Assembly (NCBI GenBank): GCA_938038445.1
Contig: CALHRZ010000017.1
Location: 12,065 to 76,064, forward strand
Direction: 5' to 3'
Length of the DNA stretch: 64,000 nt
From: an uncultured bacterium
GTDB lineage: Bacteria > Verrucomicrobiota > Kiritimatiellia > CAIKKV01
The position numbers were made by a program, and so were the translations under genes. The stretch's first letter is position 1; every line of letters starts with the position of its first letter. The notes beneath the pieces were generated by a model, which saw only the letters and a program-made list of their open reading frames with translations, did no database searches and was not told the origin of the DNA. Shown here in pieces: positions 20,124 through 38,654 of this stretch.

Positions 20124-20138
20124 TTCCCGTCCTCCCTT

Positions 20139-20561
20139 TTAATTCGAAGGCGCCTTTTCTTTCAATGCCACGAAGGATACGCGGTACAGCCCCGCCTTTC
20201 CCGCCGCCTGCATCGCCCGGCGGACGAACTCGTGACGTGTGGACTGGTGGGCCCGAATATGGACCGGCGTATCCTGCCGCCCAGCGATCCGGGCCTGGGT
20301 CAAAACCGTCACCAACCGCGCTTCAGAAAGGCGGTTTCGGGCAATGGAAATCGTACCGTCCTCATGCACCTCCACGTAAACCGTCCGCGGATCCCGTTTC
20401 TCGACGGTAGGCCCATGGGGCGAACGGGCCAGGACAATCGTTTCGTCGAAAGCCTGGCGGTCGAGCTCCACGGTCACTACAAAGAAAATGATGAGTTGGA
20501 AGACGATGTCAATCATCGGCGTCATGTTGACGCCAACCTCTTCGGTGGACCGTTTGGCCAT
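20139..20561 (-). CDS. ExbD/TolR family biopolymer transport protein
   Basis: 140 aa. The N-terminus is MTPMIDIVFQLIIFFVVT. It is a paralog of the adjacent exbD. Confidence 0.8.
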   Translation of the reverse strand: MAKRSTEEVGVNMTPMIDIVFQLIIFFVVTVELDRQAFDETIVLARSPHGPTVEKRDPRTVYVEVHEDGTISIARNRLSEARLVTVLTQARIAGRQDTPVHIRAHQSTRHEFVRRAMQAAGKAGLYRVSFVALKEKAPSN

Positions 20562-20601
20562 GACCGTCTCCCCTTCGGCACCCGATCGGGTGCGTTTTCA
20601 G

Positions 20602-21438: not shown

Positions 21439-21440
21439 CT

Positions 21441-22250: not shown

Positions 22251-25200
22251 GATCCTGAACCTCCCGTGGTTCGGCGCAGAATAGCTTCACTGCGCCACCG
22301 GCGAACCTCCTCGGCACCCCCCGCGTGGGGAAATTCCGAGGTAAACCGGTTGGCGTTTTCGACCACATCATCCCAACGCCCACCCTCCCGGAAGAGACGA
22401 ACGCTTTCATAAAGCGCCTTTTGGTAAAAGGGGCGAATGACCGGATCATCCGGTTTGCTCAAGAGGACAATCCGCTGGTAGGACGCAAGGGCTCCGTCTC
22501 GATCGCCCTGGGCAAGCTGGAGTTCAGCAAGTTCCGTGGTCGCCCGGGTAATCAACCGCTGATCGGTCGCCCGCAAAAAGACATCGCGCAAGACCTCGGT
22601 CGCCTCCTTAAGGCTTCCGGCGCCACGTAACGCCCGTCCAAGAAGGAAACGCGCTTCAAAGAAAAAGGGCGACCGCGGATACTCTTCGATTAGCCGACGC
22701 AACGCTTCAGCCGCTTCCGCCGGCCGATTGAGCGCCAGACGGGATTGCCCTAGCGCCATAAGGACACGCTGTTCCACATCCCCGCGCCGAACTCCCTCGG
22801 TCAGAGCATCCATCCGCTTGAGGGAAGCCTCAAACGCTCGAGCAGCCGCCTCGTGACGACCGCGATCTTGAAACAGAATTCCCGCTCGAAGAAATTGATC
22901 GGCCGGATAGCGGTCCGCCTCCCGAAGCATTTCCTGCAATACCTCCTCCGCCTTTTCCAACCGCTGAATCTCAATCAGACTCCTCAGCATGGCAAGCCGG
23001 GCGTTCTGACCGGCTTCCGACTGGGGATACTGCGTCGCCAGCTCTTGGTAAACCGCAGCCGCCTCATCCGAACGCCCTTCCACCAGCAGGATTGCGCCCA
23101 TCGTGCTGAGCGCGGTCGGCGCAAGCGTCGATTTCGGATAGGTTTCCACAAACCGGCGAAGATGGGCAATCGCTTCCTTACGGGATGCGGCGCCGGCCTC
23201 TCCCGCCCCCGCCATCAACATCTTGCAATATCCAAGATAGAAAAAGGCTTGCTGGTGGATCTCCTCATTCTTGCGCAACGCCTCAATAGATGTACTAAAC
23301 GCCCCACCTTTGTTATCCAGCCAACCCGTCAACTCCGCGTAATGTTGAAAAGCGTCCGCATAAGCGCCCATCTGGCGGTAGGCATCGGCCAGACAAAGCT
23401 TCGCCTGAGCCTTTTCCGTCCCCGCCTGCGCATCCGCCAGAAAGCGGGAGAACCCCTCGACCGCCCGGGGAAAATCACCCCGTAAATAATAAGCCCACCC
23501 GATCCGGTTGAGGGATTGGAGATAGCGGGGGGTCTTCGTGTACCGCTCGACGAGACGCCGGTAATAGACAACGGCACCCTCGTAATCCTCCACTTTCCAA
23601 CGCTGCTCCCCTAACATGAACAGAATTTCAGCCGCACTCGGATGCTCCGGAAACCCTTCCAGATAGCGCTCGTAGAGAAAGAGATAGAGATCCCGATTGT
23701 TTTGCTCGAAGAAATAACGGCCCACCCGAAGAAAAGCCTGGGCCGCAAGGGGATTGCCTCCAAACCGTTCCGCAAGATACTCCGCCGTGACCCGCAAACT
23801 CAACAGATCGCTCACCCGAGCATAACATTCGAGCAGATTCCCCAGCGCCGCAAGAGGCTCTTCTCCCTCGGGAAAATCATTGAGCCCTTTCAAATACTGC
23901 TCAATTGCTTTTTCGTACTCTTTCCGGCTGAACAAATTGTGCCCCTCGCGAAGCACAACGCGGGCGATTTTCTCCCTGCCCCCTTCCCGCGCCTCGATCG
24001 TAACCTCTTTTCCCGTGAGTTCCTTCACTCGGCTCTTGATGCGATCAATCGCTTCCCCCGCATTTTGACTCCAATCCGTCCCCGGATAACCGGAAAAAAC
24101 CCCGTAATAACGCCGAAGCGCTTCCGCATAATGCGAGAGGGCCAATTCCAGCCGTTTTTCCTCCAAGGCGACGTGATTCCGTCCGCGTTCCATCTCCACA
24201 AAACCCGCAAACTTCTCGCCCGGCAACAGGTCGGGCTGGGGAGAAACCCCATGCTTTTTGTCGAAGGAGTCTGCCGTCTGAATCAGTTTCTGAACCCGTT
24301 CCTTGAGTTTATTCTTCCGGTCCGCGACGGCGGGCGTCCATCCGTCTCCGCTTTCCAACTCCAAAAGGACACGCTCGAATTGGCGAGCGCTTTCGAGAAA
24401 ACGGAGAAATGGTTCCTGCCGCGCCTCGGGGGTTCCAGGCAACGTCACAGTCGTTTTTTCCTTCGCGGCCCGATCCAGGATCGCCGCGTCCCGCTGGGCA
24501 ACACGGGCGATCAGGCTCCAGAGTTCTTCAAATTCACCTGCCGCGCGTTCCAGAAACCGAAGGGCTTCCGCTTCCCGCACCTCACGGGAGGCCGTTAAAA
24601 AATCTCCACGGTCCTTATGAATCCGCCCCAAAAGGCTGAGCGCGCCGGCATAAGGGCTCTCGGAAACCAACCCCGCTTCGGACAGCCGTTCATCCAGTTT
24701 CCGAAGCATCTCCATGTTCTTGTTGAGAAGCGCGATCGCCTTGTCTTCATTCCCCTCCAACAATTCCACATGCGCCAACGCAGCAACGGCTCGGCCGAAC
24801 CAAAGGTCCATGCCTCCCCAAACAACCTCGTCACTGTTCGCCCGCGCCTTGCGAATTAAAGACTCCCGTTCCTTGCCGGCCGGAAGGCCACGGGCCGCTC
24901 GCAGAAGAAGTTCGGCCTGCTCCAATTTGAGTTGCCGAAGAGCGTCCCGATCGTCCGGCCCCAGCAGGGGAAAAATGCGGTCGTACATTCCGGCGGCAGC
25001 AAGGGGATCGTTGGCCATCGCCAACATCTGAGAAAACTTGTATGCGGCATCCCGAAAAAAGCGCCGAACATCTGGATCGGTCGGAACGGCATTCGTGTGC
25101 CGATTGAAGAAATCCGCATAGATCGCGCGGGTCTTTTCACGCTCGCCTGCCATGAAATAGCCGTCCGCGAGCGCAAGAAGGATCGCCTGCGCTTTGGGAC

Positions 25201-25522
25201 TATCCTTGGGAACCGTAGCCAACAACTCCTCGGCCTGACGGAAACGACGCCGTTCAATCATCGCCTCCGCTCGAACCACCGTCGTCCGCTCCCGAAGGGT
25301 CGGATACTCCATCTCAATCCGATCCATGACCCGTTCGGCCAGATCGGGCATCTTAAGTTTGTGGATCAGGCCGGACGCAAACTCAAACTCTCGCTCCAAA
25401 AGAGGGTCGGCGATAGAACTCCCCGCAGGCGCCTGCTGACCATGCAACGGGACCGCCAGAACGATCGCAAGCGAAAGCAGAAGAAGCCCTCTGCGCATTC
25501 TTCCGCCGTTTCCGTTCTGCAT
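22247..25522 (-). CDS. Giant secreted TPR-repeat protein (1091 aa)
   Basis: It has an N-terminal signal peptide (LLLLSLAIVLAVPLHGQQ) and more than 20 TPR-like repeats throughout. It lies first in the module. Confidence 0.65.
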   Translation of the reverse strand: MQNGNGGRMRRGLLLLSLAIVLAVPLHGQQAPAGSSIADPLLEREFEFASGLIHKLKMPDLAERVMDRIEMEYPTLRERTTVVRAEAMIERRRFRQAEELLATVPKDSPKAQAILLALADGYFMAGEREKTRAIYADFFNRHTNAVPTDPDVRRFFRDAAYKFSQMLAMANDPLAAAGMYDRIFPLLGPDDRDALRQLKLEQAELLLRAARGLPAGKERESLIRKARANSDEVVWGGMDLWFGRAVAALAHVELLEGNEDKAIALLNKNMEMLRKLDERLSEAGLVSESPYAGALSLLGRIHKDRGDFLTASREVREAEALRFLERAAGEFEELWSLIARVAQRDAAILDRAAKEKTTVTLPGTPEARQEPFLRFLESARQFERVLLELESGDGWTPAVADRKNKLKERVQKLIQTADSFDKKHGVSPQPDLLPGEKFAGFVEMERGRNHVALEEKRLELALSHYAEALRRYYGVFSGYPGTDWSQNAGEAIDRIKSRVKELTGKEVTIEAREGGREKIARVVLREGHNLFSRKEYEKAIEQYLKGLNDFPEGEEPLAALGNLLECYARVSDLLSLRVTAEYLAERFGGNPLAAQAFLRVGRYFFEQNNRDLYLFLYERYLEGFPEHPSAAEILFMLGEQRWKVEDYEGAVVYYRRLVERYTKTPRYLQSLNRIGWAYYLRGDFPRAVEGFSRFLADAQAGTEKAQAKLCLADAYRQMGAYADAFQHYAELTGWLDNKGGAFSTSIEALRKNEEIHQQAFFYLGYCKMLMAGAGEAGAASRKEAIAHLRRFVETYPKSTLAPTALSTMGAILLVEGRSDEAAAVYQELATQYPQSEAGQNARLAMLRSLIEIQRLEKAEEVLQEMLREADRYPADQFLRAGILFQDRGRHEAAARAFEASLKRMDALTEGVRRGDVEQRVLMALGQSRLALNRPAEAAEALRRLIEEYPRSPFFFEARFLLGRALRGAGSLKEATEVLRDVFLRATDQRLITRATTELAELQLAQGDRDGALASYQRIVLLSKPDDPVIRPFYQKALYESVRLFREGGRWDDVVENANRFTSEFPHAGGAEEVRRWRSEAILRRTTGGSGS

Positions 25523-25583: not shown

Positions 25584-27395
25584 TCATTTCGGAACCTCCC
25601 CGCCGAAATTGATCGCCATATACTGGGTAAAGGCATAATAGATGATGTTCACCCCCAGTTTGTAAGCCTGGCTGGCCACGGACTCGGAAGCGCCGGAATG
25701 GCCCGTCTTCCAGGCATCGTTGATATCCCCCTGGTGGTAGAATACAACCCAGCGCCCCTTGTACTTGACCCCCAGCGCTTCCTTGCCGGAGTGATGCCAA
25801 AGAGGGGGCGCTCCGTTGGGGAAATAAAAGGGATATTGGAAGATCACGTCATCCTTGGAAATCACGACCAGAGGAAGATCGGGAAAGACCCGCCGCAACA
25901 TTGTCCGGAAACTCCGGTCGAAATTCCCTCCCCCATTGTCCGCAAAGAGCATCCCTCCCATTTCCAGGCAATACTCCCGAAGAATGTTGACTTCCGACTG
26001 GGAGAGATTGATGCTCCCGCGCAACCCGCCGGTGATATAGACAAAAGGCGGAGCTCGATTCTTTGGAAAACGCTTCAACTGGTGGATGCGGATGGACTCC
26101 GTGTGAGGCCAGATGTCAAAACCGGTAAATTCCCGAAACTTGAGAAGCATGTTGTAATCGGCGCCAAATCCCATGTCCTGATCCCAGTCTCCCCCGTCGT
26201 ATTCCAGACGAATAAACCGGACCCTTGCCCGCTCCATTCCGTTCGGCCACCCCCCTTTCTTCCCGCCTCCCGCCCCGAGCTTGCCGAGCTGCTGCGCTTC
26301 GTAAGTCTGTTCGGTCTGGCGATCGATCTCTTCCAGCACCTCGCTGTCCTCGATGCGGGGTATATAAAAGGATATGGGCGCATTCAGGTTGATAATGAAC
26401 TTCTTTTCCGGCTTCTTCTGAATCCGCCGGACCTTGATCATCTCGATCATCGGCGTTCCGCTGCCTTGCGGAATCCCATACGGCAGTTCCATGCATCCCC
26501 ACCGAAACGCGATCAGGGGGAGAATAAAAATGAAGAAAAGGTGCAGCAGAGAGGAAAGATAGAGCGATTTCCTAAAGGGAGGATCCTCTCCGTGACGGCG
26601 GAGGTTGTCCCAAAGCCAGTCCGCCCAACCCGGTTGTTCCCCCTTCCGCCCGTACCAAGCGCCCGTCCGACAAAGCCATAGCGCCATGGTAAAAGCCGCC
26701 ACACCAACGATCCACGGCAGCACCCGTATCGTGCCCCAGGTCCAAAGTTCATTGCGTACCGTATTCCCATAAGCATCCGGTTGAAAGCGGCGGAGGAGCG
26801 AAGGAATCACCAGAACCCACCGCCAGATCAGGAGAAAGTAGAAAACCAGGGCAAGGGCAACCCCGCGCAGAAAAACAATCACCCCAGGGCGACGATAAAA
26901 CGACGCCAACGCCGCCAAAGGAAGAAGGACCATCAAAACGCCGGAAAAGACCGCCAGAACCCCATAGAACCCTCCCCAACTTTCCCACGGAAGGGTGTTC
27001 AGTGTCGGAACATCCATGTCCAGCAAATGGGCCAGCGCCGCCACGCCGTAACCGGTCACCCGAGAAGGAAGCCAGGCAACCCCAACGAAAAGAATCCCGA
27101 TCACGCACGGGGGAGTGACCCAACGAAGAGACTCCTCCCCAACCGTTCGACACCACGCCCGAAGACGAAGAAAAATTGGCGAAAAAAACCCTTGCAGCAG
27201 AATCGCGGTCCTAAGAGCGAGCTCACGTATCCTTCCCGCCAACGGACGAACTCGTACGGTCGCGAGAGAGAACAGGGCCATCAGGCCGTCATCCACCCGG
27301 CCTGGAAGACGCACCAAAGTCCGAATCGGACCGATGCGCCCGATTCGGTAGATCCATCTCCGCCCTTCGAACCTCACCCGGCCCCCCTTGATCAA
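25584..27395 (-). CDS. Polytopic membrane protein with C-terminal DUF4159-like domain
   Basis: 603 aa. The N-terminal half has many TMs. The C-terminal ~200 aa (VYITGGLRGSINLSQSEVNILREYCLEMGGMLFADNGGGNFDRSFRTMLRRVFPD...KGRWVVFYHQGDINDAW) resembles DUF4159. The match is from memory and not searched. An ATGA overlap joins it to the upstream gene. Confidence 0.55.
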   Translation of the reverse strand: MIKGGRVRFEGRRWIYRIGRIGPIRTLVRLPGRVDDGLMALFSLATVRVRPLAGRIRELALRTAILLQGFFSPIFLRLRAWCRTVGEESLRWVTPPCVIGILFVGVAWLPSRVTGYGVAALAHLLDMDVPTLNTLPWESWGGFYGVLAVFSGVLMVLLPLAALASFYRRPGVIVFLRGVALALVFYFLLIWRWVLVIPSLLRRFQPDAYGNTVRNELWTWGTIRVLPWIVGVAAFTMALWLCRTGAWYGRKGEQPGWADWLWDNLRRHGEDPPFRKSLYLSSLLHLFFIFILPLIAFRWGCMELPYGIPQGSGTPMIEMIKVRRIQKKPEKKFIINLNAPISFYIPRIEDSEVLEEIDRQTEQTYEAQQLGKLGAGGGKKGGWPNGMERARVRFIRLEYDGGDWDQDMGFGADYNMLLKFREFTGFDIWPHTESIRIHQLKRFPKNRAPPFVYITGGLRGSINLSQSEVNILREYCLEMGGMLFADNGGGNFDRSFRTMLRRVFPDLPLVVISKDDVIFQYPFYFPNGAPPLWHHSGKEALGVKYKGRWVVFYHQGDINDAWKTGHSGASESVASQAYKLGVNIIYYAFTQYMAINFGGEVPK

Positions 27396-28426
27396 AGCTT
27401 GAGTTCAATATCAGTAGGCCGGGGCGTTTCGCCCGGCACGGGAAGCGTCTCCCATTCCTGGGTGGACGAAGGAGCCACCGGCGAAGGCGGGGGAGACGTA
27501 GCCGGGGTCGCGGGAATCGGCGCCGTCACGGTGCCCGTTTCCGCGCCCGCCGAACCCGGCGGCGCTTGGGTGACCGATCCGCCCGTCGCAACCGCAGCTG
27601 TCGGAACTTCCGGTTCAGGTTCTTTCGGCCGGATGCGCCGATACAAATATCCCAAAGAGGTCAATCCGAGAACCACAAGATGTATCGCAACCGCCGCCCG
27701 CAAAAAGCGGGCAAACGAAACCTTGCGAAGATCGGACATGGCCACGTCCGCACGAGCGGCCTCCGATTCCCAGTCGATCTCACCCCCGCGCTTCAGAAGG
27801 TCCCGTTCTATGGCGGCGGCCGACACATTCTCCCCGGCAGGAGCCGACGCCCGTTCCCGGAGTTCTTGCTCGAGGCGAGTGATGACGGCTCGCGCCGCCT
27901 CAAGTTCAGCACGGGACTGCGCCGTCCATTCCAGCCGCTGCCGTTCCATGTCCTCCGCATGCCGGGTCTGAACAGACGCCAATTCCCGTTCCGCGCGCTC
28001 CAGACGCAAACGCGATGTCTCAAGCAAGGTTTCGAGTTCCTTGATGCGCTCGGACAACAAGCGAATTTCAGCCTCTTTCCGATCCAACCGTTCCTTCCAA
28101 ACCCGATCCTCACCTGAAACTGAAGAGGACGACAACGCGGAAACCGGAGGCGGAGCCGGCGCAGGCTCTTTCGTTTCCGGCGACGGTGAAAGGGGCGCGG
28201 CCGCAGATTTCGAAGGCTGCTCGGTCATCGCCGCATCCGCAGGAAATGACTTCACCGGCGCCGAAGGGGCAGGAGCTTCGCCCGACATGCGACCGGCAGG
28301 TTCCGTCTCGGTCGGAACAGGCGTCTTTTTGGCGCACCGGGGACAAAGAATGGTCTTTCCCGCAAAGGTTTTGAGCACTTTGAGGGCCGCCCCGCATCGA
28401 GCACAAGAAAAAGCAATCGTATTCAT
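27392..28426 (-). CDS. Zinc-ribbon / coiled-coil / single-TM / Pro-rich protein (candidate TonB/TolA-like coupling protein)
   Basis: Start is MNTIAFSCARCGAALKV...CPRCAKK (CxxC...CxxC zinc ribbon). A long heptad coiled coil follows (EIRLLSERIKELETLLETSRLRLERAERELASVQ), then one TM (AVAIHLVVLGLTSLGYLY), then a Pro/Thr/Ala-rich C-terminus. The ATG at 28426 is verified, and an ATGA overlap joins it to exbD. Confidence 0.55.
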   Translation of the reverse strand: MNTIAFSCARCGAALKVLKTFAGKTILCPRCAKKTPVPTETEPAGRMSGEAPAPSAPVKSFPADAAMTEQPSKSAAAPLSPSPETKEPAPAPPPVSALSSSSVSGEDRVWKERLDRKEAEIRLLSERIKELETLLETSRLRLERAERELASVQTRHAEDMERQRLEWTAQSRAELEAARAVITRLEQELRERASAPAGENVSAAAIERDLLKRGGEIDWESEAARADVAMSDLRKVSFARFLRAAVAIHLVVLGLTSLGYLYRRIRPKEPEPEVPTAAVATGGSVTQAPPGSAGAETGTVTAPIPATPATSPPPSPVAPSSTQEWETLPVPGETPRPTDIELKL

Positions 28427-28830
28427 TGTCCGGATCCCGTCTTTTCGCCGATCAGAACCAGTTCCGCCTCGGATTGGGCCAGGGCGGCGAGCACCCGACC
28501 GAATTCGCGATACCGCCGATCCCGATCCATTTTCAAATACACCCGCCGGTCCTTCCGGTCGCCAAGTAAGGAGGACACCAGCGGCTCCAGCGCATCCAAC
28601 GCGCATTCTTCACCCTGCACCCACAGCCGGCCTTGTTCGTCCAGAACCACGCTGAGGGGTGCCTGCTCGAGAATCTCGATATCGGGCGATTCGGGCGGCC
28701 GGCTTTTAATATGCGCCTCCTTCATGAAGACCGACGCCAGCACAAAGAAAATGATGAGCTGAAAAGCAATATCGCCGAAGGATGTGAGGGGAAGAAGGGG
28801 TTGGCGGCGCCGTCTGCGGGCAATCTTCAC
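28423..28830 (-). CDS. ExbD/TolR family protein
   Basis: 135 aa. The ExbD-like TM is LTSFGDIAFQLIIFFVLASVF. Confidence 0.75.
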   Translation of the reverse strand: MKIARRRRRQPLLPLTSFGDIAFQLIIFFVLASVFMKEAHIKSRPPESPDIEILEQAPLSVVLDEQGRLWVQGEECALDALEPLVSSLLGDRKDRRVYLKMDRDRRYREFGRVLAALAQSEAELVLIGEKTGSGQ

Positions 28831-29300
28831 GAGCCCTCCTTTCCGCCGCCTCCGGAGGGAGGTGAACCCGATGCCCCCCCGCCTCCCTCTCCGCTTTCGG
28901 CGCTTTCCACAAGGGCCAGGATTCCACCCTCGCGGGCAATCGCGGTCACCACCTTGTAGTAGCGATCGTAATCCACGTCAGGAGCGCACTCTACGATCAA
29001 AACCCGCTCGCTCTCAGAACGTTCCCGCAGCTTCATCTGTTTCAGCGCCTCGCGGAACTCTTCGATCGTAAGGGTTTCCTCCTTGAATTGCAGCGTCTCC
29101 GCCGTCAGAGCAACAGTGGGGTATTCCTCCTCCGGTTTCTGGGACTCCTCCTGCGTGCTGGCCGGGATCATGACGGAAACCCCCATGCTTTTGGAAAAGG
29201 TCGTCGTCAGAATGAAGAAAATGATCAGAAGAAACGCGACGTCGGCAAAGGAGGTGACGTCCACGTCTCGGAATTCACGGGGTTTTCGCGCAATACGCAT
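28827..29300 (-). CDS. ExbD/TolR family protein
   Basis: 157 aa. The TM region is VTSFADVAFLLIIFFILTT, and the C-terminal tail is Gly-rich. Confidence 0.75.
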   Translation of the reverse strand: MRIARKPREFRDVDVTSFADVAFLLIIFFILTTTFSKSMGVSVMIPASTQEESQKPEEEYPTVALTAETLQFKEETLTIEEFREALKQMKLRERSESERVLIVECAPDVDYDRYYKVVTAIAREGGILALVESAESGEGGGGASGSPPSGGGGKEGS

Positions 29301-29317
29301 CGGAAAAGCCAGGAATT

Positions 29318-29956
29318 TCAGTCCCGCAAATGCAAAAAGTTAACGAGTTCGTTGGCCGAATCTTCGATCGCGATCGTCAGTTGTTCAACGCGATTGACAA
29401 AGAGGTTGTAGGCAATGACCGCCGGGACCGCGATCAAGAGCCCTGCCGCCGTGGTAATCAACGCCTCCGAGATGCCGGCCGCCACATCGCCGCCTTGCAG
29501 AGTGCCGCCCGCCTTGGCCATTTCGTTGAACGCCTTGATCATACCCGTAACCGTTCCCGTCATGCCAACCAGCGGCGCCGTACTGCCCACCAGCAGCAAC
29601 AGCCCGACCCGTTTCTCCAATTCCGCCAACACATGCGGCGCATAATCCTCCATACATTTGGAGACACTCGCTTCGATTTCCGCTTTCTGTCGCCTCAGCG
29701 CCATTAACGCCCGGTAGCGATTGAGCCCCGCAAGCAAAATCGCCGCCACAGGACCTTTGGTTTCTTCACATAAGCGGATCGCTTCGTCCACCTTGCGCTC
29801 CGCGAGCAATTGCAAAACCATGCGCCGGAGCAATGAGGTATCCCGGCTGGCGGTCGCCAAAACCCTCCAGCGCTCCAAAATCACAGCCAGTCCGGTGATC
29901 GAAAGAGCGAGCAACACCCACATCAGGGGGCCGCCGTCGAGCATGAATTTCAGCAT
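29318..29956 (-). CDS. MotA/TolQ/ExbB proton-channel family protein
   Basis: 212 aa. The three-TM topology ends in the conserved region LVGMTGTVTGMIKAF...ITTAAGLLIAVPAVIAYN. Confidence 0.8.
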   Translation of the reverse strand: MLKFMLDGGPLMWVLLALSITGLAVILERWRVLATASRDTSLLRRMVLQLLAERKVDEAIRLCEETKGPVAAILLAGLNRYRALMALRRQKAEIEASVSKCMEDYAPHVLAELEKRVGLLLLVGSTAPLVGMTGTVTGMIKAFNEMAKAGGTLQGGDVAAGISEALITTAAGLLIAVPAVIAYNLFVNRVEQLTIAIEDSANELVNFLHLRD

Positions 29957-29973
29957 GGGACAGAACTCCGGAG

Positions 29974-32139
29974 TTATCGGTTAATCAGTTCCAACACCTT
30001 GTGCGCCTTGCCTGCAGCGACACTGTTCGGATAATCGCGAATCAGGGCGGTCAGTTTTTCGCGGGCTTCATTCTGCCGGCCAAGGCGGACCAGGACCACG
30101 CCCCATTTCAGGAGCATTTCGTCCAGGAAGGGGGCATCAGGATAATCCTGAAAAACGGTTTGAATCATCTCCAGACAGCGGGCGTAATCTCGTGCTTCCA
30201 GGTGGAAGTCGATCACCTTGCCCAGCGCTTCCCCGGCAAAAGGCGAATCGGGATACTGCTCGGCCACGGAGCGGTAAGCCGCAATCGCCTGCCCCAAGGC
30301 GCGCAGGCGTTCTTCTCGGCTGAGATTGGATCGGATGCTCTGCTCCAGTGTCTGCGCCAGCAAAAATTGGGCCTCCGCCTTCAGATCGGGGGATGTCTTG
30401 AGCCCCAAAATGCCACGCAGGAGTCCCGCGGCTTCGTTCGGCTTTCCCGCGTTGAGATAAGCCCGTGCAATCTGCATCATCGCCACATCGGCCAGCGAAG
30501 AAGTGGGAAAAAGCGCCATGAGCTGGCGGCAGGTGGCGATCGCCCCGCTCAGATCGTCCTTGGCAATCTGAAGTTCCCACTTCAACTGATAGGCCTCTTC
30601 CACCAGTTCGGGCGGAAGCGAGGCGCGGGCATACCGCCGGAGCACATCCTCGACCTTTTCCAACCCTGTATCCGCCTTTTCATGCGACCGAGCCATCAAT
30701 CCCACATCCTTGAAAATCTGGGCTAATCGAAGATAAAACTTGGCCTCCGTCACATTTTTGCGGGCCCGCAGCACCTCCGTCGCCACCTCCCGTTGCGCCA
30801 CCATGACGTCGGGAATCTCGCCGGCCAGAAATTCCGCGCGAGCTGAAACCAAACGCGGTTCCTTCCGGCTCCCAATGTGTGCCTTGTCCTCATATTCGAG
30901 AAAGATGATGTCTTTCTCCGCCGCCGATAGAATGCTGTCAGCCGTGTTCAAGGGCTGGCCTTCCTCCCATTTCTGAATGTTCAAGGTTCCCGTAAACACT
31001 CCCGTCATCGGCCCGCTCTCCCGAAGCGTCAAAGAGAGGCTGTCCCGATCCAATAACTCCTCCACTTCCAACGCAGCCGCCGTTTCCTCGCGCGGGGCCG
31101 GGTAGCGGGCAATAATCCGTACCACGACCGTGTCCGGACCGTCGGTGACATCGGCATCCAAGTCCTTGACCCGAAGAAACGCCGGTTGGCCGACAAAAAG
31201 ACCTCGCACATATTCCCGGTAGGCACCGTCCGTAAAGCCTGCCACGGCCGTCGAAACAGTCCGCGCAAAGGCTTTGCGCTCCACGTTTCGCCCCCCGTCC
31301 TGCGTGTTGGCATCCAGATAGGAAACCGTAATGCGGTCCCCGCCGCGCACTTCCAGAATGCCGTTGGTCGCCACCGCCTTTCCTTGTTCCATTCGGATGC
31401 TGCCCAAATAGAACTCCCCCTCTGCATCAAAGGGTTCCAGCGTCAAACGTTCCCGATCGCCCGAATCGGTTGTGACCGTGACTTCCAACGGGCGGCCCGC
31501 GATTTTGAGAACACGCAGGTCCTTGTCCTGAATCTTGACAAAAAACCGCTGCCCGGCTTCGACAAGGGACTCCTCTTCTCCTTCGTTAGGAGGAACGCTG
31601 GTCCCAACCATTTTGAGGGCTTCAACCGCCTGTCGCCACCGTTTCAACTGGAAATGGCACAGTCCAATATAATAGTAGGCTTCGTTGGCAAAAACGCTCC
31701 ACGGATACTGGTCCGTCACCTTCCGCAAGGTCGAAAGGGCGCGGGGATAATCCCCCAATCCGTAATGAGCGATCCCCATGCGGTAGAGCGCCTCCGCCTT
31801 TTCGTCCGGTCCCGCATCTTCCGCATCCAGCACCGGCTGAAGATTCTTGAGCGCGAGGGCGAAATCGGGCCTGTTCTCGGTGTAATACCGCCCAATTGCC
31901 AGCCAGGCCTGGAGCCGAACGGGCGATTTGGGAAAGGTGGCGGGAATCGAGGCCAACACCTTGAGCCCGCGCTCGTCCTGCCGGTCTTCAATCAGGGCAA
32001 GCCCCTGCCGGAATAACCGCATCGCCGCCGGGTCGCCCGCGCCGGAAGAATCGGTCGGCGTCTGCTGGGCCCTGCCGGCGGCCCCCGCCAGCAGCCCTCC
32101 GATTGTTACTGCCGCCATCACCATCGTTTTCCACTTCAT
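29974..32139 (-). CDS. Secreted TPR-repeat protein (~720 aa) with central beta-rich region
   Basis: It has a signal peptide (MVMAAVTIGGLLAGAAGRAQQ). TPR blocks sit at both the N- and C-termini, flanking a non-TPR middle of about 250 aa. Confidence 0.6.
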   Translation of the reverse strand: MKWKTMVMAAVTIGGLLAGAAGRAQQTPTDSSGAGDPAAMRLFRQGLALIEDRQDERGLKVLASIPATFPKSPVRLQAWLAIGRYYTENRPDFALALKNLQPVLDAEDAGPDEKAEALYRMGIAHYGLGDYPRALSTLRKVTDQYPWSVFANEAYYYIGLCHFQLKRWRQAVEALKMVGTSVPPNEGEEESLVEAGQRFFVKIQDKDLRVLKIAGRPLEVTVTTDSGDRERLTLEPFDAEGEFYLGSIRMEQGKAVATNGILEVRGGDRITVSYLDANTQDGGRNVERKAFARTVSTAVAGFTDGAYREYVRGLFVGQPAFLRVKDLDADVTDGPDTVVVRIIARYPAPREETAAALEVEELLDRDSLSLTLRESGPMTGVFTGTLNIQKWEEGQPLNTADSILSAAEKDIIFLEYEDKAHIGSRKEPRLVSARAEFLAGEIPDVMVAQREVATEVLRARKNVTEAKFYLRLAQIFKDVGLMARSHEKADTGLEKVEDVLRRYARASLPPELVEEAYQLKWELQIAKDDLSGAIATCRQLMALFPTSSLADVAMMQIARAYLNAGKPNEAAGLLRGILGLKTSPDLKAEAQFLLAQTLEQSIRSNLSREERLRALGQAIAAYRSVAEQYPDSPFAGEALGKVIDFHLEARDYARCLEMIQTVFQDYPDAPFLDEMLLKWGVVLVRLGRQNEAREKLTALIRDYPNSVAAGKAHKVLELINR

Positions 32140-32155
32140 GGGCTTGTTGCTCCGC

Positions 32156-33982
32156 TTAGAGGTCCTCATCCAAAATACCGCCTCCCGTCGCCACGCCATA
32201 CCGTTCCAGCCACTGATGCGCCTGAGACGAAACCGGATGCTGAGGATACTTTTTCAGCACAGCCCGCAAGGCCGCAATCGTTTTCTCACGGTTCTTGGCT
32301 CCTTCCCACACCTGCGCTTTGCGCAACGCGGCCTGCGGCGCATCGCGTTCGAAAAAGTTCTCGATTTCCGTAAGGGCTTCCACCGCCTGCTCCGGTTTGC
32401 CCCACCGTTGATAGCATTCGGCCGTAGCCCAGATCGTCGCGGGGGGATCATTGATCATCGCGTAAAGTTTGATCGCCTCTTCATAACGAGCCAGCCGATC
32501 TTTATAGAGGGTGGCGCGCAAACGCAAGGCCCTAAGGGAATAAGTCTTATCGTCCATTTTCTCAAGTTCTTCACATTTTTCGGCTTGAACCGCCCATTTC
32601 TCCTGCGCGCCCAACACTTCGATCTCCTTCCAAAGAGCCAGCGGAGGCGATTCGATCCGTCGAGCCATTTCGATCGCCCGCTCAAACTGCCGAGCGTTTC
32701 GAAATCGATCGCATAGACCCGCAAGACCGTTGTCCCGTTCGGGATTCGGCATGCGGAGATAATGCTCCCGGGCCCGAGCGATCAGGGCGTTCCATACGTC
32801 CGCGTGCGGCTCGGTTCCTGCGATCGGCATCGGAAAGCGATCCAGCGCCGGAAGAATCACCGCCAGTTGGCCCGCAGCATCCAGCCGATCCAACCGTCCC
32901 GCCAGAACTTCCCCAAAGTTTTTCCATTCGGGGGCAACGGTAAACTTCACCTGCCCCCCCTCGACCAGCCGGGGAATCATCCACTGGACCGATGAGCGAA
33001 GCGCGTCGCGGTTCTCCACTCGGCGAAAATCGTCCAGGGCGCTCTTCCAGATTTCCCCCCACTCCCGGCTCAAGCGCGCCCGCGCCGCAAGTGTGAGCAT
33101 GCGATTATACCAGTCGGAAAGACGCCCCGCTTCGGAAAAGACGGTCCTCTTCATCCGAGCCCATTCAAAAAAAACCCGCCGCTGCTTCTCGGGGATCGAA
33201 TCGAAAACGGCAAGTCCCCGATCGAGAATAAAAACCGCCTGGTCGGGCGGCTTGGCTCCAGTTGGAGGAAAACGGCCCAGAAGGCGATCCGCATCCTCGT
33301 ATCGTCCTTGCCGACAGTATAAATCCGTCAGCTTCTGTCGGGCCGTTGTTGCCGCGCTTTCCGGCCTTCCAACGAAGGATTCGAGATAGCCGTCAACAAT
33401 CCGCGTCCAACACCGTTCGGCTTCCCGCCACTTTTCTTGCTGCGCATAAAAGTCGGCCAGCCGGTCCAGCATGAGGTCCGCGACCGGATGGGCCAATGCC
33501 GCATCACGGTCGGTCATCTCCTGCCACACGGCGAAACCTTGCTCGAGATTCCCGTTCTCAATCAACGCAAGCCCCTTTAAATAGGCCGCCGGAACTGCCT
33601 CGTCCATGGACTTGCCGAAAAAGTCGAGCACCTCATTGTACCGCTGAATCGCCTTGTTCCGAAACCGGGCGAGATGATAGCCTAACCCCTGCATGAGAAG
33701 GGCGTGGCCATACACCGGCGTTTGAGGATTGGCGGTCACAAACTTTTCGTATTCGAGCGCCGCCGCCTCGAACTTGCTTTCCCGGATGAGTTTTTCCGCC
33801 GCTTCATACTGAAGCCGTTCCGCCTGGGACAGCAACCCGTACTTTCGCGGCGGGAGAGTCCAGGACCAAACGCCCTTGAAAATATCCTCCGCAGGTCCTG
33901 CACACAGGCGAACAGAAGCCATCCCCCACGTCCACGCCACAAGGATCTGAAGCCACCGACCTTTCACCCTCAATCCCGGCAT
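32156..33982 (-). CDS. Secreted TPR/helical-repeat protein (~608 aa)
   Basis: The start is chosen at MPGLRVKGRWLQILVAWTWGMASVRLCAGP (signal-like), 1 nt after the stop of the 1527-aa TPR gene. The body is alpha-helical repeats. Confidence 0.55.
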   Translation of the reverse strand: MPGLRVKGRWLQILVAWTWGMASVRLCAGPAEDIFKGVWSWTLPPRKYGLLSQAERLQYEAAEKLIRESKFEAAALEYEKFVTANPQTPVYGHALLMQGLGYHLARFRNKAIQRYNEVLDFFGKSMDEAVPAAYLKGLALIENGNLEQGFAVWQEMTDRDAALAHPVADLMLDRLADFYAQQEKWREAERCWTRIVDGYLESFVGRPESAATTARQKLTDLYCRQGRYEDADRLLGRFPPTGAKPPDQAVFILDRGLAVFDSIPEKQRRVFFEWARMKRTVFSEAGRLSDWYNRMLTLAARARLSREWGEIWKSALDDFRRVENRDALRSSVQWMIPRLVEGGQVKFTVAPEWKNFGEVLAGRLDRLDAAGQLAVILPALDRFPMPIAGTEPHADVWNALIARAREHYLRMPNPERDNGLAGLCDRFRNARQFERAIEMARRIESPPLALWKEIEVLGAQEKWAVQAEKCEELEKMDDKTYSLRALRLRATLYKDRLARYEEAIKLYAMINDPPATIWATAECYQRWGKPEQAVEALTEIENFFERDAPQAALRKAQVWEGAKNREKTIAALRAVLKKYPQHPVSSQAHQWLERYGVATGGGILDEDL

Positions 33983-33983
33983 G

Positions 33984-36900
33984 TCAGTTTTCCGTCGCAA
34001 ACTTCCGGAACGCCTGATCGTTTTGAACCAGTTGCCCCCGGGCAAATTTCGCCCATTTACTCTCCGGATAATCCCACGTCAACCGTTTGAATGCGATATA
34101 GGCGTTCTTCATGTCCTGTGTCTTCAGGTAGCAGTCGCCGAGCCAGTACATCGCCTCCGCCCGAAGATCCTTGTCCTCGTACAACGCGAGAAGCCGCTCA
34201 AATTTGGCGATGGCTTCCGTTAGCCAGGACTTCGCTTTCTCATCGTACCGACCCTCCAAAACCGTCTTCCGTTCCTCCGCCCCCTTCATGTAGCTCTGGG
34301 CCGAAAGGAAGAGCGCTTTGGCCGCCAACTCGTGTTCCGGATTGCGGGACTGGAAGTTCCCAAAGATTTTGCCAGCAACCTCGTATTCTTTCGTACGATA
34401 AAAGTATTGCGCCAACCGGAGAATCGCATCGGAAACCAGAGGGCTGCGGGGATAGGCATACGTCAGTTCGACATAGGCATCGAGCGCATTGTCATTGTCC
34501 CCCATTCGCTCCAGACAGATCCCTTTCCGCAGCTGGGCTTTCGGTGCAAACTCGCTATCCGGCCAGTTGCTCAATACCTTGTTGTATCGCTCCAGCGCCT
34601 CTTCAAATTTCTCCAACTCCTGCGCCAGATTGCCGAGCAAAAATTCGGCATGGGGCGCATGAACCGTATCGGGATAATCCGCAATCGCCTCTTCCAAGAT
34701 CTGCTTGCCCTCCGCAATTTCTGCTTCGGCTTGAGATTTCTGCCCGGTTTCGCGATGTTCTTTGGCCAACTCGAACAATGCTTCGGCCATCAACAGGCGC
34801 GTTTTGACCGCAATGTCTTCGTTCGAGAACCGCTTGGTAAACGTTGCCAACCGCCCATCATCACCCATGAAAACCTGAACCTGAGCGGTCACGGCCCGCG
34901 GTTGAGTCGCAATCACGCTGACGGCATCTTGGTAAATCGCCGTGATCGTCTCCCCATATTCGACCGGAAGAACGCCCTCCTGAACGGCCCCAGAGCCTGC
35001 AAGTTCCGTCTTGATCCGCCCCGAAAAGACGCCGGAATGCGGCAGGGTTTCGGTCAAAACCATCGGAAATTCCCCCGCCTTGACGCGCAGACGAACCTCC
35101 ACCGGATCGAGTTCGTCCGTTTGATCCATATCCCGATCCATGAGCAGCAAATGGGCGTAATCCCCCACGAAAATCTGCCGTTCCGGCTCAAGATAGCGTC
35201 GGTCCATAAACCGCATGGAGGCATCGGTCGCAAGCGCAAACCAGCCCCGCGTCGCGGGTTCTTTCCGAACCGTAGGAATCACTACCCGCAACAGGTCAAC
35301 GCTCCGCATGTAAAAACGGGCCCGTCGAGCGTTGAGACGGCCCAGGGCCTCCTCCCGGCTGTCCTCCTCAACATATCCTGAGGAATCGCCAAGCCGCACG
35401 TCCACAAAGACCGAAAACTCCCCGTTCGTCGGGTCGCTCAACGTCATCGGAATCTCCTGATACGGAGGCCGCCTTCCCGCCGCTTCCGCCTCAGCGGCTT
35501 CCCGTTCGGTCGTCAGCCAAGCCACATGGGTGGATTTGGCGCCCAAAGCCGCCGCCGGATAGAGAACCCGGAAATGGACCGATGTGTCCATGCTTGTGAC
35601 CAGGGGCGCTTCGGGTCGTTGCCCCGCGCCCGCCGGGGCTGGACGGATCTGAACAACCGGACCCTTCTTTCCGGTCAGCCCTTCGTCGTCCCTCAAAAAT
35701 ACCGTTTGATAAAGGAGGAGTTCAGGAGGGTCCTGGGGAGCATCCGTGACCGAGGCGGTCCGGACAAGCTGTCCGTCGCTGCTTTCCTCGTCCCGGTACT
35801 CCAGGGTTACGGTGTCGCCCGAGGTCACCGCGATCGTGTCCCCTGCCGTCTGTCGGCCAAGACGAAGAATCGCGACAAAGACCCCAGAGTGAGGTTCCGT
35901 TTCGATCGCCTCCATTTCCAGAGACTCGCCCGAAGCCGTCGTAATCCACACGGGCACCTTGTCATGCTCCCGGCTCACATCGGCGTCATAGTCGGTGATG
36001 TGCACAACGAGCGATTCGGTCTCGCCCGTCCGAAACCGAAAGGCGGGATCATGTACGATCTCCCGTTCGCCTTTGGCATTCATCTCGATCGTTTCATAAG
36101 CAAACATCACTCGCGCATTGAAAAACCCGGATCGCAGCACCGCCGTCAAGCGGTTGTTGTCGCGTCGAATTCGACGTTCGTCCATATAAGAAATTTCGAT
36201 TCGGTCTCCCGGTCCGAGATGCAATACCCCGTCCGCCGCCCCCTTCAACCGTTCGGGCGGGAGAGGCAGAATGGCTTCGCCGCGCGGGCCAACAATGGTG
36301 GCCGTCCGAATGGCCACGTCGTTTCCTTCAAAACCGTCAAATACCCATCGAAGCTTCCGGACGGAAACAGGACGCGTGAAACGGGCCGTCGCCTTCTGCG
36401 ATTCCAACACCAGATGACCCGCGGGCGTCACGTCAACACTCTTCCAGCGAAATATTTGATCCCGGATGCGAACCGGCTTCTCCGTCTGCACCCGCGCGCC
36501 GAATTCGACACTCTCTTCCGGAGTCGGTCGGTTGAAGAGATGCCACTTGAGTACGACTCCTGGCGCCGCCGGCGGCACGGAGGGCATGGAAGCCAAGGGG
36601 TTGTTGGCTTTGTCCAGGACCGTCATGCTGGCTCCCCACGGTCCGCTGATCTGCGCCACCCGTAGTACGACGCCGTTCGTCCCCGCCTTCAATGAGCCCG
36701 TGACCGCATCCTCTTCGGGTTTCCAGATCCGCCCCGCCGGCCGACTATGGATCCGCTGGCCGTTCAGCCAAACCGTCACTCCATCACAACTGCCGATTTT
36801 GAAAACCGCCTCCTGGTCCGTTTCGCTGACGAGTTCCGTATAGAGAAAGGCCGCGGTGTTGCGCAGCGAACCAAAATGAGCGGCCAGATCCACGTAGCCA

Positions 36901-38567
36901 TAAACCTGCTCGCGGGATGGCTTCGTACTGAGAAGCGGCGTAAGCTTGTCGCCCGCCCCGCCCAACAACGTAAGATCGCGGACTGTGCCCCCGCCCGATA
37001 GATCCAACACTGCACTCCCGATCGGTTGGACGTTCATCAGATCCACCTCCCACCACGGCGGTTCACTGCCGCGAGATCCGCTCTTCCAGCCCGCCGATCC
37101 TGTAGCCAGGGGCCCGGCGGGATCCCGGCCGCTTGCCGTGTCGGATGCCGTCGCGCGGGGAGGCGACTTGGCCGTGGGAAGCTCACCGCGAAAGATCCCC
37201 GTATTGGGTCCCGTCTCTGTCAACCGCACCGGGTCAACCACATCCCCCGAGGAGGCGGCGGCACGCACTTCCACGGCATCGGGAGTTGGACTGACGCTCC
37301 GGTCATAGTCCACAACTTGAATGCGGATTGGATTGCCAGGACGAACCAGCCAGGGATCCCGTTCCCGCTCAAATGCGGCCATGGATTTTCCGTCCCGCTG
37401 CAGAAGAATCGCCATCCGTTGGCGAAGCAATGCCTCATCGCGCTGCTCGGCGCTCTGAAATTCCCCCGCTGTTGCGGTCAATTCCCCATCGGAAATCACG
37501 GCCATTTGTTTGGCCTCGTACTTCAGATTGTTCGCTTTTTGAAACGCTTCTTCAATTTGATATGCCACCGCATCGCCCCCCAATACCTGAAGCCGCAAGT
37601 CCCCCGGAACAGCCGGCCCGAGAACCGTGCTGATGGAGCCGCGGAACAAGGTCGGATCCCGCGGCGTAGGCAGGAGATTGAGCTTCTCTCGATCGCCTCC
37701 TTTGAGCGTCCGAATTTCGACCGGAATGCCTGCGCCCCCGCGAACAATCGCAAGATTCGGATCCTGCATCCTCATGGTAACAGGCCGGCCAGGTACCACG
37801 TATGAGGTCAGCACCCGTTCGCCGATTTCGAGTTCAGGATCCTGCAGACGGTCTTCGCGCAGATTGATTTCCGCTTCCAAAAAAATCGCCTCCACATGTT
37901 CGGGCACCCGTTTTTTTACCTCCAGCAGATTGGCCCTCGCCTCCGCATAATCCTCTCGATCAAAGGCAATCCGAGCCGCCAGAAAATACGCTTCCGCCTG
38001 AGCGGCCGCTTCCGGCGCATCCTTCAACCGCTCGATCAGCATGTCTGCGCCATCAAAGTCCCTTGTTAAGCGTAAAATGTCCACCACCCGAAATCTCGCG
38101 TGGCGTCCCGATTCGGTCAGGCGGAGATCCCGGTCCCGATCGAGACTTTCATACTCCAGTTTCGCCGCCGCATAATTTTGCTGATCCCGATACGTATCCC
38201 CCTTGATCAACCGCAGCCGAGCCGTCTGCTCCGGATTCATCCGCCGAGCAGCGAGCACCATATCGGCCACTGCGATCGCCTCTTTGTACTCTTTGTGCCG
38301 ACGATGCTGATCGGCAACCCAGATCACGAAGTCGCTGTCAAGCGAACTCCAGTGCTGCCGCAGCGTCTGCGCCTTGGGAAGATAGAGGTCCCATGCCCGC
38401 GCTTCCTGCCCCTCTTTGTAGGCCTGAGCCGCCGCTTTGAGCGCCTCAAGGGCGGAATCAGATGCTTGCTGCGCACGAACGGCGCTCAACGGAACAAGCA
38501 GCGAAATGATCGCCAGCGCGAGACTCCACGGTTTAGAACGGGAAGACGGGGGGCGGGAAACCATCAT
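33984..38567 (-). CDS. Giant secreted TPR-repeat protein (1527 aa) with internal beta-sandwich/jelly-roll-like regions
   Basis: It has a signal peptide (LALAIISLLVPLSAVRAQQ) and TPR arrays at both termini. The large central non-TPR segments include a ConA/LamG-like stretch (FKIGSCDGVTVWLNGQRIHS...). The ATG pair at 38567 and 38564 is verified. Confidence 0.65.
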   Translation of the reverse strand: MMVSRPPSSRSKPWSLALAIISLLVPLSAVRAQQASDSALEALKAAAQAYKEGQEARAWDLYLPKAQTLRQHWSSLDSDFVIWVADQHRRHKEYKEAIAVADMVLAARRMNPEQTARLRLIKGDTYRDQQNYAAAKLEYESLDRDRDLRLTESGRHARFRVVDILRLTRDFDGADMLIERLKDAPEAAAQAEAYFLAARIAFDREDYAEARANLLEVKKRVPEHVEAIFLEAEINLREDRLQDPELEIGERVLTSYVVPGRPVTMRMQDPNLAIVRGGAGIPVEIRTLKGGDREKLNLLPTPRDPTLFRGSISTVLGPAVPGDLRLQVLGGDAVAYQIEEAFQKANNLKYEAKQMAVISDGELTATAGEFQSAEQRDEALLRQRMAILLQRDGKSMAAFERERDPWLVRPGNPIRIQVVDYDRSVSPTPDAVEVRAAASSGDVVDPVRLTETGPNTGIFRGELPTAKSPPRATASDTASGRDPAGPLATGSAGWKSGSRGSEPPWWEVDLMNVQPIGSAVLDLSGGGTVRDLTLLGGAGDKLTPLLSTKPSREQVYGYVDLAAHFGSLRNTAAFLYTELVSETDQEAVFKIGSCDGVTVWLNGQRIHSRPAGRIWKPEEDAVTGSLKAGTNGVVLRVAQISGPWGASMTVLDKANNPLASMPSVPPAAPGVVLKWHLFNRPTPEESVEFGARVQTEKPVRIRDQIFRWKSVDVTPAGHLVLESQKATARFTRPVSVRKLRWVFDGFEGNDVAIRTATIVGPRGEAILPLPPERLKGAADGVLHLGPGDRIEISYMDERRIRRDNNRLTAVLRSGFFNARVMFAYETIEMNAKGEREIVHDPAFRFRTGETESLVVHITDYDADVSREHDKVPVWITTASGESLEMEAIETEPHSGVFVAILRLGRQTAGDTIAVTSGDTVTLEYRDEESSDGQLVRTASVTDAPQDPPELLLYQTVFLRDDEGLTGKKGPVVQIRPAPAGAGQRPEAPLVTSMDTSVHFRVLYPAAALGAKSTHVAWLTTEREAAEAEAAGRRPPYQEIPMTLSDPTNGEFSVFVDVRLGDSSGYVEEDSREEALGRLNARRARFYMRSVDLLRVVIPTVRKEPATRGWFALATDASMRFMDRRYLEPERQIFVGDYAHLLLMDRDMDQTDELDPVEVRLRVKAGEFPMVLTETLPHSGVFSGRIKTELAGSGAVQEGVLPVEYGETITAIYQDAVSVIATQPRAVTAQVQVFMGDDGRLATFTKRFSNEDIAVKTRLLMAEALFELAKEHRETGQKSQAEAEIAEGKQILEEAIADYPDTVHAPHAEFLLGNLAQELEKFEEALERYNKVLSNWPDSEFAPKAQLRKGICLERMGDNDNALDAYVELTYAYPRSPLVSDAILRLAQYFYRTKEYEVAGKIFGNFQSRNPEHELAAKALFLSAQSYMKGAEERKTVLEGRYDEKAKSWLTEAIAKFERLLALYEDKDLRAEAMYWLGDCYLKTQDMKNAYIAFKRLTWDYPESKWAKFARGQLVQNDQAFRKFATEN

Positions 38568-38654
38568 GGCGCGTCCTGTCAGTTGGGCTTGCGATAACGA
38601 ATGAGAGCTTTTAAGATAACCGAAACCTCAAAAATCATCAATTTGTTTTTCACC

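Follow-up and report, generated by a model that had tools for sequence, protein, structure and literature searches.

The stretch of DNA analysed here, 64,000 nt from an uncultured Kiritimatiellia bacterium (contig CALHRZ010000017.1; hereafter the window, within which all coordinates are given), carries a cluster of eight genes, g01 to g08, between positions 25,584 and 38,567 (Table 1). With a probability of roughly 0.6, this locus encodes a trans-envelope force-transduction system of the Tol/Ton/Agl type, an eight-gene unit of Sumerlaeota and of the Planctomycetota-Verrucomicrobiota-Chlamydiota (PVC) bacteria that consists of a motor, a transducer without a globular head, and tetratricopeptide repeat (TPR) partners. 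The system is a variant within the known Tol/Ton/Agl motor family and not a categorically new machine. An earlier sequence-only reading, which had proposed an undescribed envelope machine driven by the proton motive force (PMF), was therefore right about the envelope system centred on a PMF motor but not about its standing outside that family. What sets it apart from both the Agl-Glt core complex and the PVC loci with a vWA transducer described below is the headless, tail-only transducer, the DUF4159 partner, and the giant modular TPR scaffolds.

PVC bacteria, which include Kiritimatiellia, Lentisphaeria, Verrucomicrobiota, and Planctomycetota, play a major part in breaking down complex and sulfated glycans, and some bring whole polymers into the periplasm. 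To our knowledge, little is known about how these bacteria energise events beyond the inner membrane. The locus defines a widespread, syntenic system whose transducer appears to have lost its globular head, and it offers concrete parts: the His-bearing helix and C-terminal tail of g07, the heterodimeric ExbD pair, the DUF4159 domain, and the TPR scaffolds. It also ties together separate lines of work on the Agl-Glt core complex, the new PVC force transducers, and possibly mucin uptake by Akkermansia.

The eight-gene unit and its candidate transducer

Gene identities were assigned by Pfam profile search, and all 14 genes considered here (g01 to g14) lie on the minus strand. The observation behind the sequence-only reading, eight co-directional genes of the kinds listed in Table 1, is confirmed, as gene identities, tight junctions, and domain absences all hold in the sequence. 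Searches with each protein (PF01618, PF02472, TPR, PF13709) upheld the assignments, and the scanned open reading frames (ORFs) of the window showed no classical TonB C-terminal domain (TonB_C), no TolA domain III, no TolB or Pal, and no domain of a TonB-dependent receptor. The g05/g06 (ExbD/ExbD) and g06/g07 junctions are 4-nt overlaps (GTGA and ATGA, respectively), g07 and g08 possibly overlap by TTGA if g08 starts at the TTG at 27395, and the remaining genes are separated by 1 (g01/g02), 16, 17, and 17 nt. A scan for promoters and terminators gave chance-level counts, revealed no internal intergenic terminator, and carries no information on transcript boundaries.

The unit is conserved far outside the window. 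A genome scan with one genome per species confirmed 221 stretches, the best 80 of which were examined; synteny was assessed by searching 83 loci with the 14 window proteins (tblastn) and by reading called genes on three contigs. The order g01-g02-g03-ExbB-ExbD-ExbD-g07-DUF4159 recurs in about 55 of the 83 related loci, and the exceptions are mostly short contigs; the arrangement is thus far beyond chance. It is kept in nearly all loci with enough upstream flank and in the called genes of the three contigs, and g08 lies directly after g07 at every locus with enough flank. The best 80 of the 221 loci belong to Kiritimatiellia, Lentisphaeria/Victivallales, Verrucomicrobiota including Opitutales, and Planctomycetota/Phycisphaerae, the closest being Kiritimatiellia with 62-77% identity, and a Sumerlaeota contig has the same gene arrangement. 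The neighbourhood comparison proposed with the sequence-only reading is therefore strongly positive throughout the PVC group. No TolB, Pal, or TonB-dependent receptor was found in the conserved flanks of the syntenic loci read.

The motor proteins are related to TolQ and TolR at a distance. For g04, the best NCBIfam match is tolQ (127 bits; equivalog cut-off 221), followed at 84 bits by the ExbB model, and its identity to E. coli TolQ is 32%. The motor proteins score under the equivalog cut-offs for TolQ, TolR, exbB, and exbD, with TolR at 35 bits against a cut-off of 127. The transmembrane (TM) Asp that aligns with TolR D23 and ExbD D25 is invariant in all four ExbD proteins of the window (g05, g06, g12, and g13), and the Thr residues of TM2 and TM3 are kept in both ExbB proteins (g04 and g11). 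The TM3 Glu is kept in g04, while g11 has Gln in its place. Judged by these residues, g04 and g05/g06 keep what is needed for a proton-driven 5:2 motor.

The gene that follows the ExbD pair, g07, is too divergent for tblastn. An ORF is always present at its position, which allowed 71 orthologues to be extracted from the loci. A single TM helix with a conserved His is found in 70 of these 71. Around this His, present in 67/67 distinct His-bearing sequences, the family conserves Ser at -4 (47/67), Thr at +7 (54/67), and Ser at +8 (65/67). The S-x3-H core is common to the g07 family, E. coli TonB (S16, H20), and TolA (S18, H22). In hhalign comparisons, the family profile lies in register with the TolA helix at S18/H22 (P 1.1e-4, probability 56%) and with the TonB helix (P 0.009), the fit to TolA being the better one.

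C-terminal to the helix, g07 orthologues have 70-159 residues (median 103.5) that either resemble TolA domain II in being rich in Ala, Lys, and Glu or are Pro-rich, as are the spacers of the window clade. The C-terminal tails of the family are conserved and acidic and fall into four recurring classes (for example, PPEVQPLPPKKEFEYGDDLSLD); Asp and Glu make up 31% of the last 12 residues versus 15% elsewhere. The window g07 consists of a cytoplasmic Zn ribbon, a Pro-rich segment, a coiled coil, the TM helix, a Pro/Ala-rich spacer of ~85 amino acids (aa), and the conserved tail (...LPVPGETPRPTDIELKL). Pfam searches at E<=10 with g07 and seven diverse orthologues gave no PF03544 and no globular domain; the window g07 matched only a weak Zn ribbon. 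The TonB_C or TolA_C fold that was to be sought in this protein is accordingly absent by Pfam, and a periplasmic part of 70-159 aa with low complexity and a short tail leaves no room for the ~90-aa TonB_C fold.

The most fitting interpretation of the g07 sequence is a force transducer of the TolA/TonB class whose globular head has been lost. The transducer would be headless rather than absent because the S-x3-H helix signature is conserved and because the family profile aligns in register with the TolA helix. The claim that the locus has no recognisable TonB or TolA consequently needs revision: the C-terminal domains are missing, and the motor-binding signature of the TM helix is kept. The Zn ribbon and coiled coil, previously listed among the core features, occur in only 8 of 68 g07 orthologues; like the Pro-rich segment, they are lineage-specific cytoplasmic additions. 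The three closest orthologues (L004:3306-4631, L005:8531-9742, and L006:8477-9853) carry two tandem Zn-ribbon modules with Pro/Ala-rich spacers between them, the window g07 has one, and most others have none. A role of g07 as an anti-sigma factor, which a Zn ribbon next to a TM helix might call to mind, was rejected given the same 8/68 count for the Zn ribbon and the lack of an adjacent sigma factor gene.

Several metagenome-assembled genomes (MAGs) hold diverged copies of the eight-gene core. CAZNWT01 has three (L009, L016, and L021), which differ visibly in their g07 tails, and CAZSBQ01 (L054 and L065) and CAZKKD01 (L012 and L019) have two each. The divergence of these two to three copies and of the CAZNWT01 tails suggests that paralogous systems within one MAG may be specialised. 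In one subfamily (L048, L053, L054, L065, L069, L075, L078, and L079), the g07 tail reads IPxxPDDLGISIDxTN, and counterparts of g02 and g03 are undetected by tblastn. At L048, a single 2389-aa g01 lies upstream of ExbB, with no separate ORF of g02 or g03 size. In this subfamily, TPR repertoire and g07 tail type thus change together.

TPR scaffolds and the DUF4159 protein

The TPR proteins g01, g02, and g03 measure 1527, 608, and 721 aa once trimmed to plausible starts. In g01, a signal peptide and an N-terminal TPR region are followed by ~1000 aa of beta-rich modules and a C-terminal TPR region of the CpoB/BamD type. The layout of g03 is an N-terminal TPR region, two beta-rich modules, and a C-terminal CpoB/BamD-type TPR region. 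The g03 insert at residues 191-390 matches three places in g01, including 255-467 (E 3.6e-10) and 777-927, and the two proteins are, by sequence comparison, paralogues. The CpoB/YbgF-type model TIGR02795 scores above its NCBIfam cut-off in g01 (107.6 bits), g03 (101 bits), and g09 (137.1 bits), in each case as a domain of a much larger protein. For g02, the YbgF-type match (49.5 bits) is below the cut-off, and its position is conserved in synteny.

Residues ~470-660 of g01 are conserved and give sub-threshold Pfam matches to F5/8-type-C, GH2 sugar-binding, and PA14 families; the g01 profile also gives non-significant matches to fucolectin, CBM32, and PA14 entries in the PDB. This region is a weak candidate for a discoidin/PA14-like jelly roll. 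The signals are weak but convergent, and they hint at glycan binding. Jelly-roll-like inserts had been proposed for all three TPR proteins; they find this weak support in g01, whose beta-rich modules g03 shares, and none were seen in g02.

Full-length homologues of the DUF4159 protein g08 number in the hundreds; a search of 1.84 billion proteins yielded 908 representative clusters at E<=1e-3. The AlphaFold2 model of g08 (predicted local distance difference test score, pLDDT, 71) comprises a membrane domain made of helices, a Lys-rich, disordered linker of ~90 residues, and an alpha/beta domain. With Foldseek, the C-terminal domain matched only the DUF4159 structural-genomics structure 4i66 (E 1.6e-8, TM-score 0.81) and no vWA structure. 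Reading the window protein and L048 by eye under the positive-inside rule points to about five TM helices, a cytoplasmic N-terminus, and a periplasmic DUF4159 domain. Two DUF4159 homologues, P0109 and P0112, carry N-terminal FHA/Yop-YscD_cpl domains, and several representatives of 700-1200 aa have long N-terminal extensions. The FHA fusions fit, and so support, a cytoplasmic N-terminus; they are also reminiscent of GltG, a gliding transducer whose FHA domains are cytoplasmic.

Within the DUF4159 domain (residues 345-524 of g08), the polar motifs GGDWDQ, DNGGG, WHH, and FYHxGD are invariant across 18 diverse homologues. This pattern is more suggestive of a metal-binding or catalytic site than of a domain with a structural role alone. 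A literature search on DUF4159 returned nothing beyond a Pfam database paper. The possibility that g08 is a second TonB-like transducer was dropped, as the S-x3-H pattern noticed by eye in its last TM helix is kept in only 44 of 80 orthologues, 30 others having Phe.

Proposed mechanism and competing explanations

In the proposed mechanism, ExbB5 with a heterodimer of ExbDa and ExbDb would use the PMF to move the g07 helix, which would be bound at the periphery of ExbB. The g07 stalk would span the periplasm, and its C-terminal peptide would dock into the groove of one TPR scaffold, by analogy with the disordered segments of GltG and GltF, for which docking into the TPR proteins GltD and GltC is predicted (PMC11761067). 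The work of the motor would thereby be applied to a large periplasmic TPR/beta-sandwich assembly, which may bind glycans. In this scheme, g08 would be an inner-membrane accessory subunit that presents its periplasmic DUF4159 domain.

It is possible, at clearly less than even odds, that the output is the energy-driven handling, capture, or import of polymers, for instance glycans, rather than pure tethering of the outer membrane. Glycan handling is favoured because the system is multi-copy in some genomes and because the giant scaffold carries candidate sugar-binding jelly rolls.

Several points weigh against a force-transduction system of this kind and against its glycan output. The likeness of the g07 and TolA helices rests on a short motif with an hhalign probability of only 56%, the distal conserved Ser of the g07 family lies at +8 versus +11 in SHLS (S-x3-H-x6-L-x3-S), and the window g07 has Ala, not Ser, at -4. 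Incomplete conservation of the His in the last TM helix of g08 (44/80) makes the tie of this protein to the motor uncertain. The carbohydrate-binding reading of g01 draws on sub-threshold matches and a model with pLDDT 48. The scanned window is a housekeeping neighbourhood (dnaX, recR, lptF/G, metK) with no carbohydrate-active enzyme or transporter gene to back a glycan role, and no outer-membrane component was identified at the locus.

A more ambitious form of the glycan proposal is improbable. It holds that the eight-gene unit is a PVC alternative to TonB-dependent SusC/D-type uptake, in which a 5:2 proton motor would pull on a headless transducer whose C-terminal peptide is plugged into giant TPR scaffolds with lectin-like modules, so that polymeric glycans are captured and brought into the periplasm without a TonB-dependent receptor, and of which the MUL1 locus of Akkermansia muciniphila would be a derived member. 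Mul1A and Mul1B of MUL1 are presumably TPR proteins. MUL1 is reported to comprise Mul1B (amuc_0543), Mul1A (amuc_0544), and ExbB/D and to be required for mucin uptake and use (Davey et al., 2023, as cited in the PMC13174399 supplement and PMC12570417). MUL1 resembles the present locus in belonging to a PVC organism and in combining periplasmic proteins with ExbB/ExbD. Unlike the broadly conserved eight-gene unit, MUL1 synteny is reported to be absent from aquatic Akkermansiaceae (PMC13174399). No Akkermansia protein is among the g08 homologues listed.

Among described systems, a class of PVC loci shares both phyla and motor make-up with the eight-gene unit. These loci, first noted in Tichowtungia aerotolerans, consist of a gene for a TPR protein, a tolQ-like gene, two heterologous tolR-like genes, and a force transducer with an SHLS anchor and a vWA domain (Mol Biol Evol 2025, PMC12204202). 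The upstream TPR gene, the single TolQ-like protein, the heterologous TolR pair, the His-bearing TM helix, the disordered or Pro-rich linker of ~100 residues, and the absence of a TonB/TolA C-terminal domain are all common to both. Where the vWA transducers have a globular C-terminal domain, g07 ends in a conserved peptide tail alone. The next gene here encodes a five-TM DUF4159 protein, with the 4i66 fold and not a vWA fold. There are also three TPR genes, one of them giant with beta modules, and the downstream g14 has an alpha/alpha-toroid head. The claim that none of the described Ton, Tol, Mot, Agl, or Gld systems corresponds to the locus is thus not supported in view of this class of "TPR-tolQ-tolR-tolR-novel transducer" loci, and equally in view of the Agl-Glt core complex, whose recipe the parts list matches (PMC3169522; PMC11761067).

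The main rival to a polymer-handling force-transduction system, doubtful in itself, is that the locus is a PVC functional replacement for Tol-Pal that stabilises or constricts the outer membrane and coordinates peptidoglycan synthesis at division. The TolQ/TolR-like motor with its conserved Asp, Thr, and Glu points this way, as does the S-x3-H anchor helix. Within the motor, g04 scores best with the TolQ model (127 bits versus 84 for ExbB) and is 32% identical to the E. coli TolQ protein. Many g07 orthologues have an Ala/Lys/Glu-rich helical stalk like TolA domain II, and hhalign places the family closer to TolA than to TonB. CpoB-type TPR units are present, with g01, g03, and g09 above the CpoB/YbgF model cut-off, the genomic context is one of housekeeping genes, and Tichowtungia (Kiritimatiellota) is reported to have no recognisable TolA or TonB (PMC12204202). 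However, no TolA domain III, TolB, or Pal is found in the window or the syntenic loci, the TolR paralogues number two instead of one, and the motor proteins stay under the TolQ/TolR equivalog cut-offs. The TPR proteins reach 600-2500 aa with beta-sandwich inserts, and scaffolds of 1500-2500 aa with beta-sandwich/jelly-roll modules have no Tol-Pal counterpart. Two to three diverged copies per genome would also be unusual for a division-housekeeping system.

Quite improbable is the explanation that the locus is a relative of the Agl-Glt/Nfs core complex that drives surface-coupled transport, such as gliding, trafficking of adhesion complexes, or deposition of surface polymers. The core complex is an eight-gene set of Proteobacteria and Fibrobacter (aglR, aglQ, aglS, gltC, gltD, gltE, gltG, and one extra gene) that provides one TolQ-like protein, two TolR-like proteins, the three TPR proteins GltC, GltD, and GltE, and the TonB-like GltG, and from which the Myxococcus gliding and Nfs sporulation machines are derived (Luciano et al., 2011; PMC3169522). 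AglR5QS-GltG has been modelled as an analogue of TolQ5R2-TolA (PMC11761067). The present locus has the same parts in one eight-gene operon, namely one TolQ-like and two different TolR-like proteins, three signal-peptide-bearing TPR proteins including one of at least ~1000 aa, a bitopic transducer, and one extra gene. The same block order is found in gammaproteobacteria and Fibrobacter (PMC3169522 text and supplement 5).

The likeness extends to the transducers and their partners. In both systems, the cytoplasmic part of the transducer varies (FHA or Zn ribbon), and segments of it are predicted to dock into TPR grooves; GltJ bears an N-terminal Zn ribbon like the window g07 (PMC11761067), and FHA domains, present in GltG, also occur in some g08 homologues. 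Glt-like systems typically come as multi-copy loci whose functions have diverged (PMC3169522). Nevertheless, membership is not detectable in sequence: among the Glt NCBIfam models, the only match is GltE on g09, which reaches 28 bits where the cut-off is 225. A TonB-like C-terminal domain is retained in GltG and GltJ, whereas g07 has none. Gene order differs in detail, DUF4159 is not reported from the core complex, and the taxa are different. Of the additional Glt genes that are argued to have made the core complex a motility machine, such as those for GltA, GltB, GltH, and GltK, none is evident at the locus.

Very unlikely is ordinary TonB-dependent uptake of the Bacteroidetes exbB-exbD-exbD-tonB-TPR type with a TonB too divergent to recognise: the order of ExbB, two ExbD paralogues, and an S-x3-H-anchored protein, the TPR genes in the operon, and the Pro-rich spacers of the window clade agree with it, but the low-complexity 70-159-aa periplasmic part of g07 without PF03544, the absence of a TonB-dependent receptor from the window and conserved flanks, and the DUF4159 gene and three TPR genes as constant partners in nearly all loci with enough flank do not. 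The locus is hence not that Bacteroidetes arrangement under another name, in agreement with the sequence-only reading.

Gene table, downstream module, and surroundings

Table 1. Genes of the eight-gene core (g01 to g08) and of the adjoining second module (g09 to g14), with positions in the 64,000-nt window.
Gene	Position	Strand	Product	Supporting match
g01	33984..38567	-	Giant secreted TPR scaffold, 1527 aa	Pfam TPR
g02	32156..33982	-	Secreted all-helical TPR-like protein, 608 aa	Weak TPR matches
g03	29974..32139	-	Secreted TPR scaffold, 721 aa	TPR_6 E 1e-31; YfiO E 8e-16
g04	29318..29956	-	ExbB/TolQ-type stator subunit, 212 aa	MotA_ExbB PF01618 E 1e-29
g05	28827..29300	-	ExbD/TolR paralogue a, 157 aa	PF02472 E 1.6e-18
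g06	28423..28830	-	ExbD/TolR paralogue b, 135 aa, GTG start	PF02472 E 1.3e-16
g07	27392..28426	-	Bitopic protein, 344 aa; CxxC...CxxC, coiled coil, one TM helix, Pro-rich tail	Zn_ribbon_8 E 0.009
g08	25584..27281	-	Polytopic DUF4159 protein, 565 aa (603 aa from TTG at 27395)	PF13709 E 1e-30
g09	22247..25522	-	Secreted TPR protein, 1091 aa; opens second module	TPR families; TIGR02795 137.1 bits
g10	21441..22250	-	TPR protein, 269 aa; ATGA-coupled to g09	Pfam
g11	20602..21390	-	Second ExbB/TolQ-type stator, 262 aa; signal-peptide-like N-terminal extension	PF01618 E 2e-26
g12	20139..20561	-	ExbD/TolR, 140 aa	PF02472 E 5.5e-21
g13	19713..20123	-	ExbD/TolR, 136 aa	PF02472 E 3.8e-17
g14	18207..19700	-	Candidate second transducer, 497 aa; TM helix, linker, alpha/alpha-toroid domain	SQHop_cyclase_C E 5e-5, below cut-off

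Past g08, where the sequence-only reading had placed its limit (25584-38567), the cluster goes on. Six further co-directional genes extend to 18207 and form a second module directly downstream of the core (18207-25522, minus strand), with two TPR proteins, another ExbB, two ExbD, and an anchored alpha/alpha-toroid protein. In the 83 loci, this module adjoins the core only in the closest relatives (L004-L006, partly L040); it is thus a separate unit that is fused to the core here. Its last gene, g14, encodes an N-terminal TM helix (GSIVIHLIVLLLL) with the pattern S-x3-H-x6-L, followed by an acidic, Pro-rich linker and a C-terminal domain that resembles the alpha/alpha-toroid of terpene cyclases and prenyltransferases (PDB 8j5z, E 3.8e-6). 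By this architecture, g14 looks like a candidate for another non-canonical force transducer. No description of an alpha/alpha-toroid head on such a transducer was found.

An anti-phage defence motor, such as Zorya, was also considered for the locus and rejected, as 10 of its proteins gave zero matches to the anti-phage models of PADLOC. The surrounding genes of the window are housekeeping genes: lptF/G, metK, ahcY, ptsI, dnaX, recR, nrdD, and clpX. Upstream of the operon start, a divergent gene (38601-39374, plus strand) codes for a type II secretion pseudopilin G domain (PF08334, E 2.9e-18) along with a CxxC...CxxC Zn ribbon and a TM segment. The start codons of this gene and of g01 are only ~33-87 bp apart.

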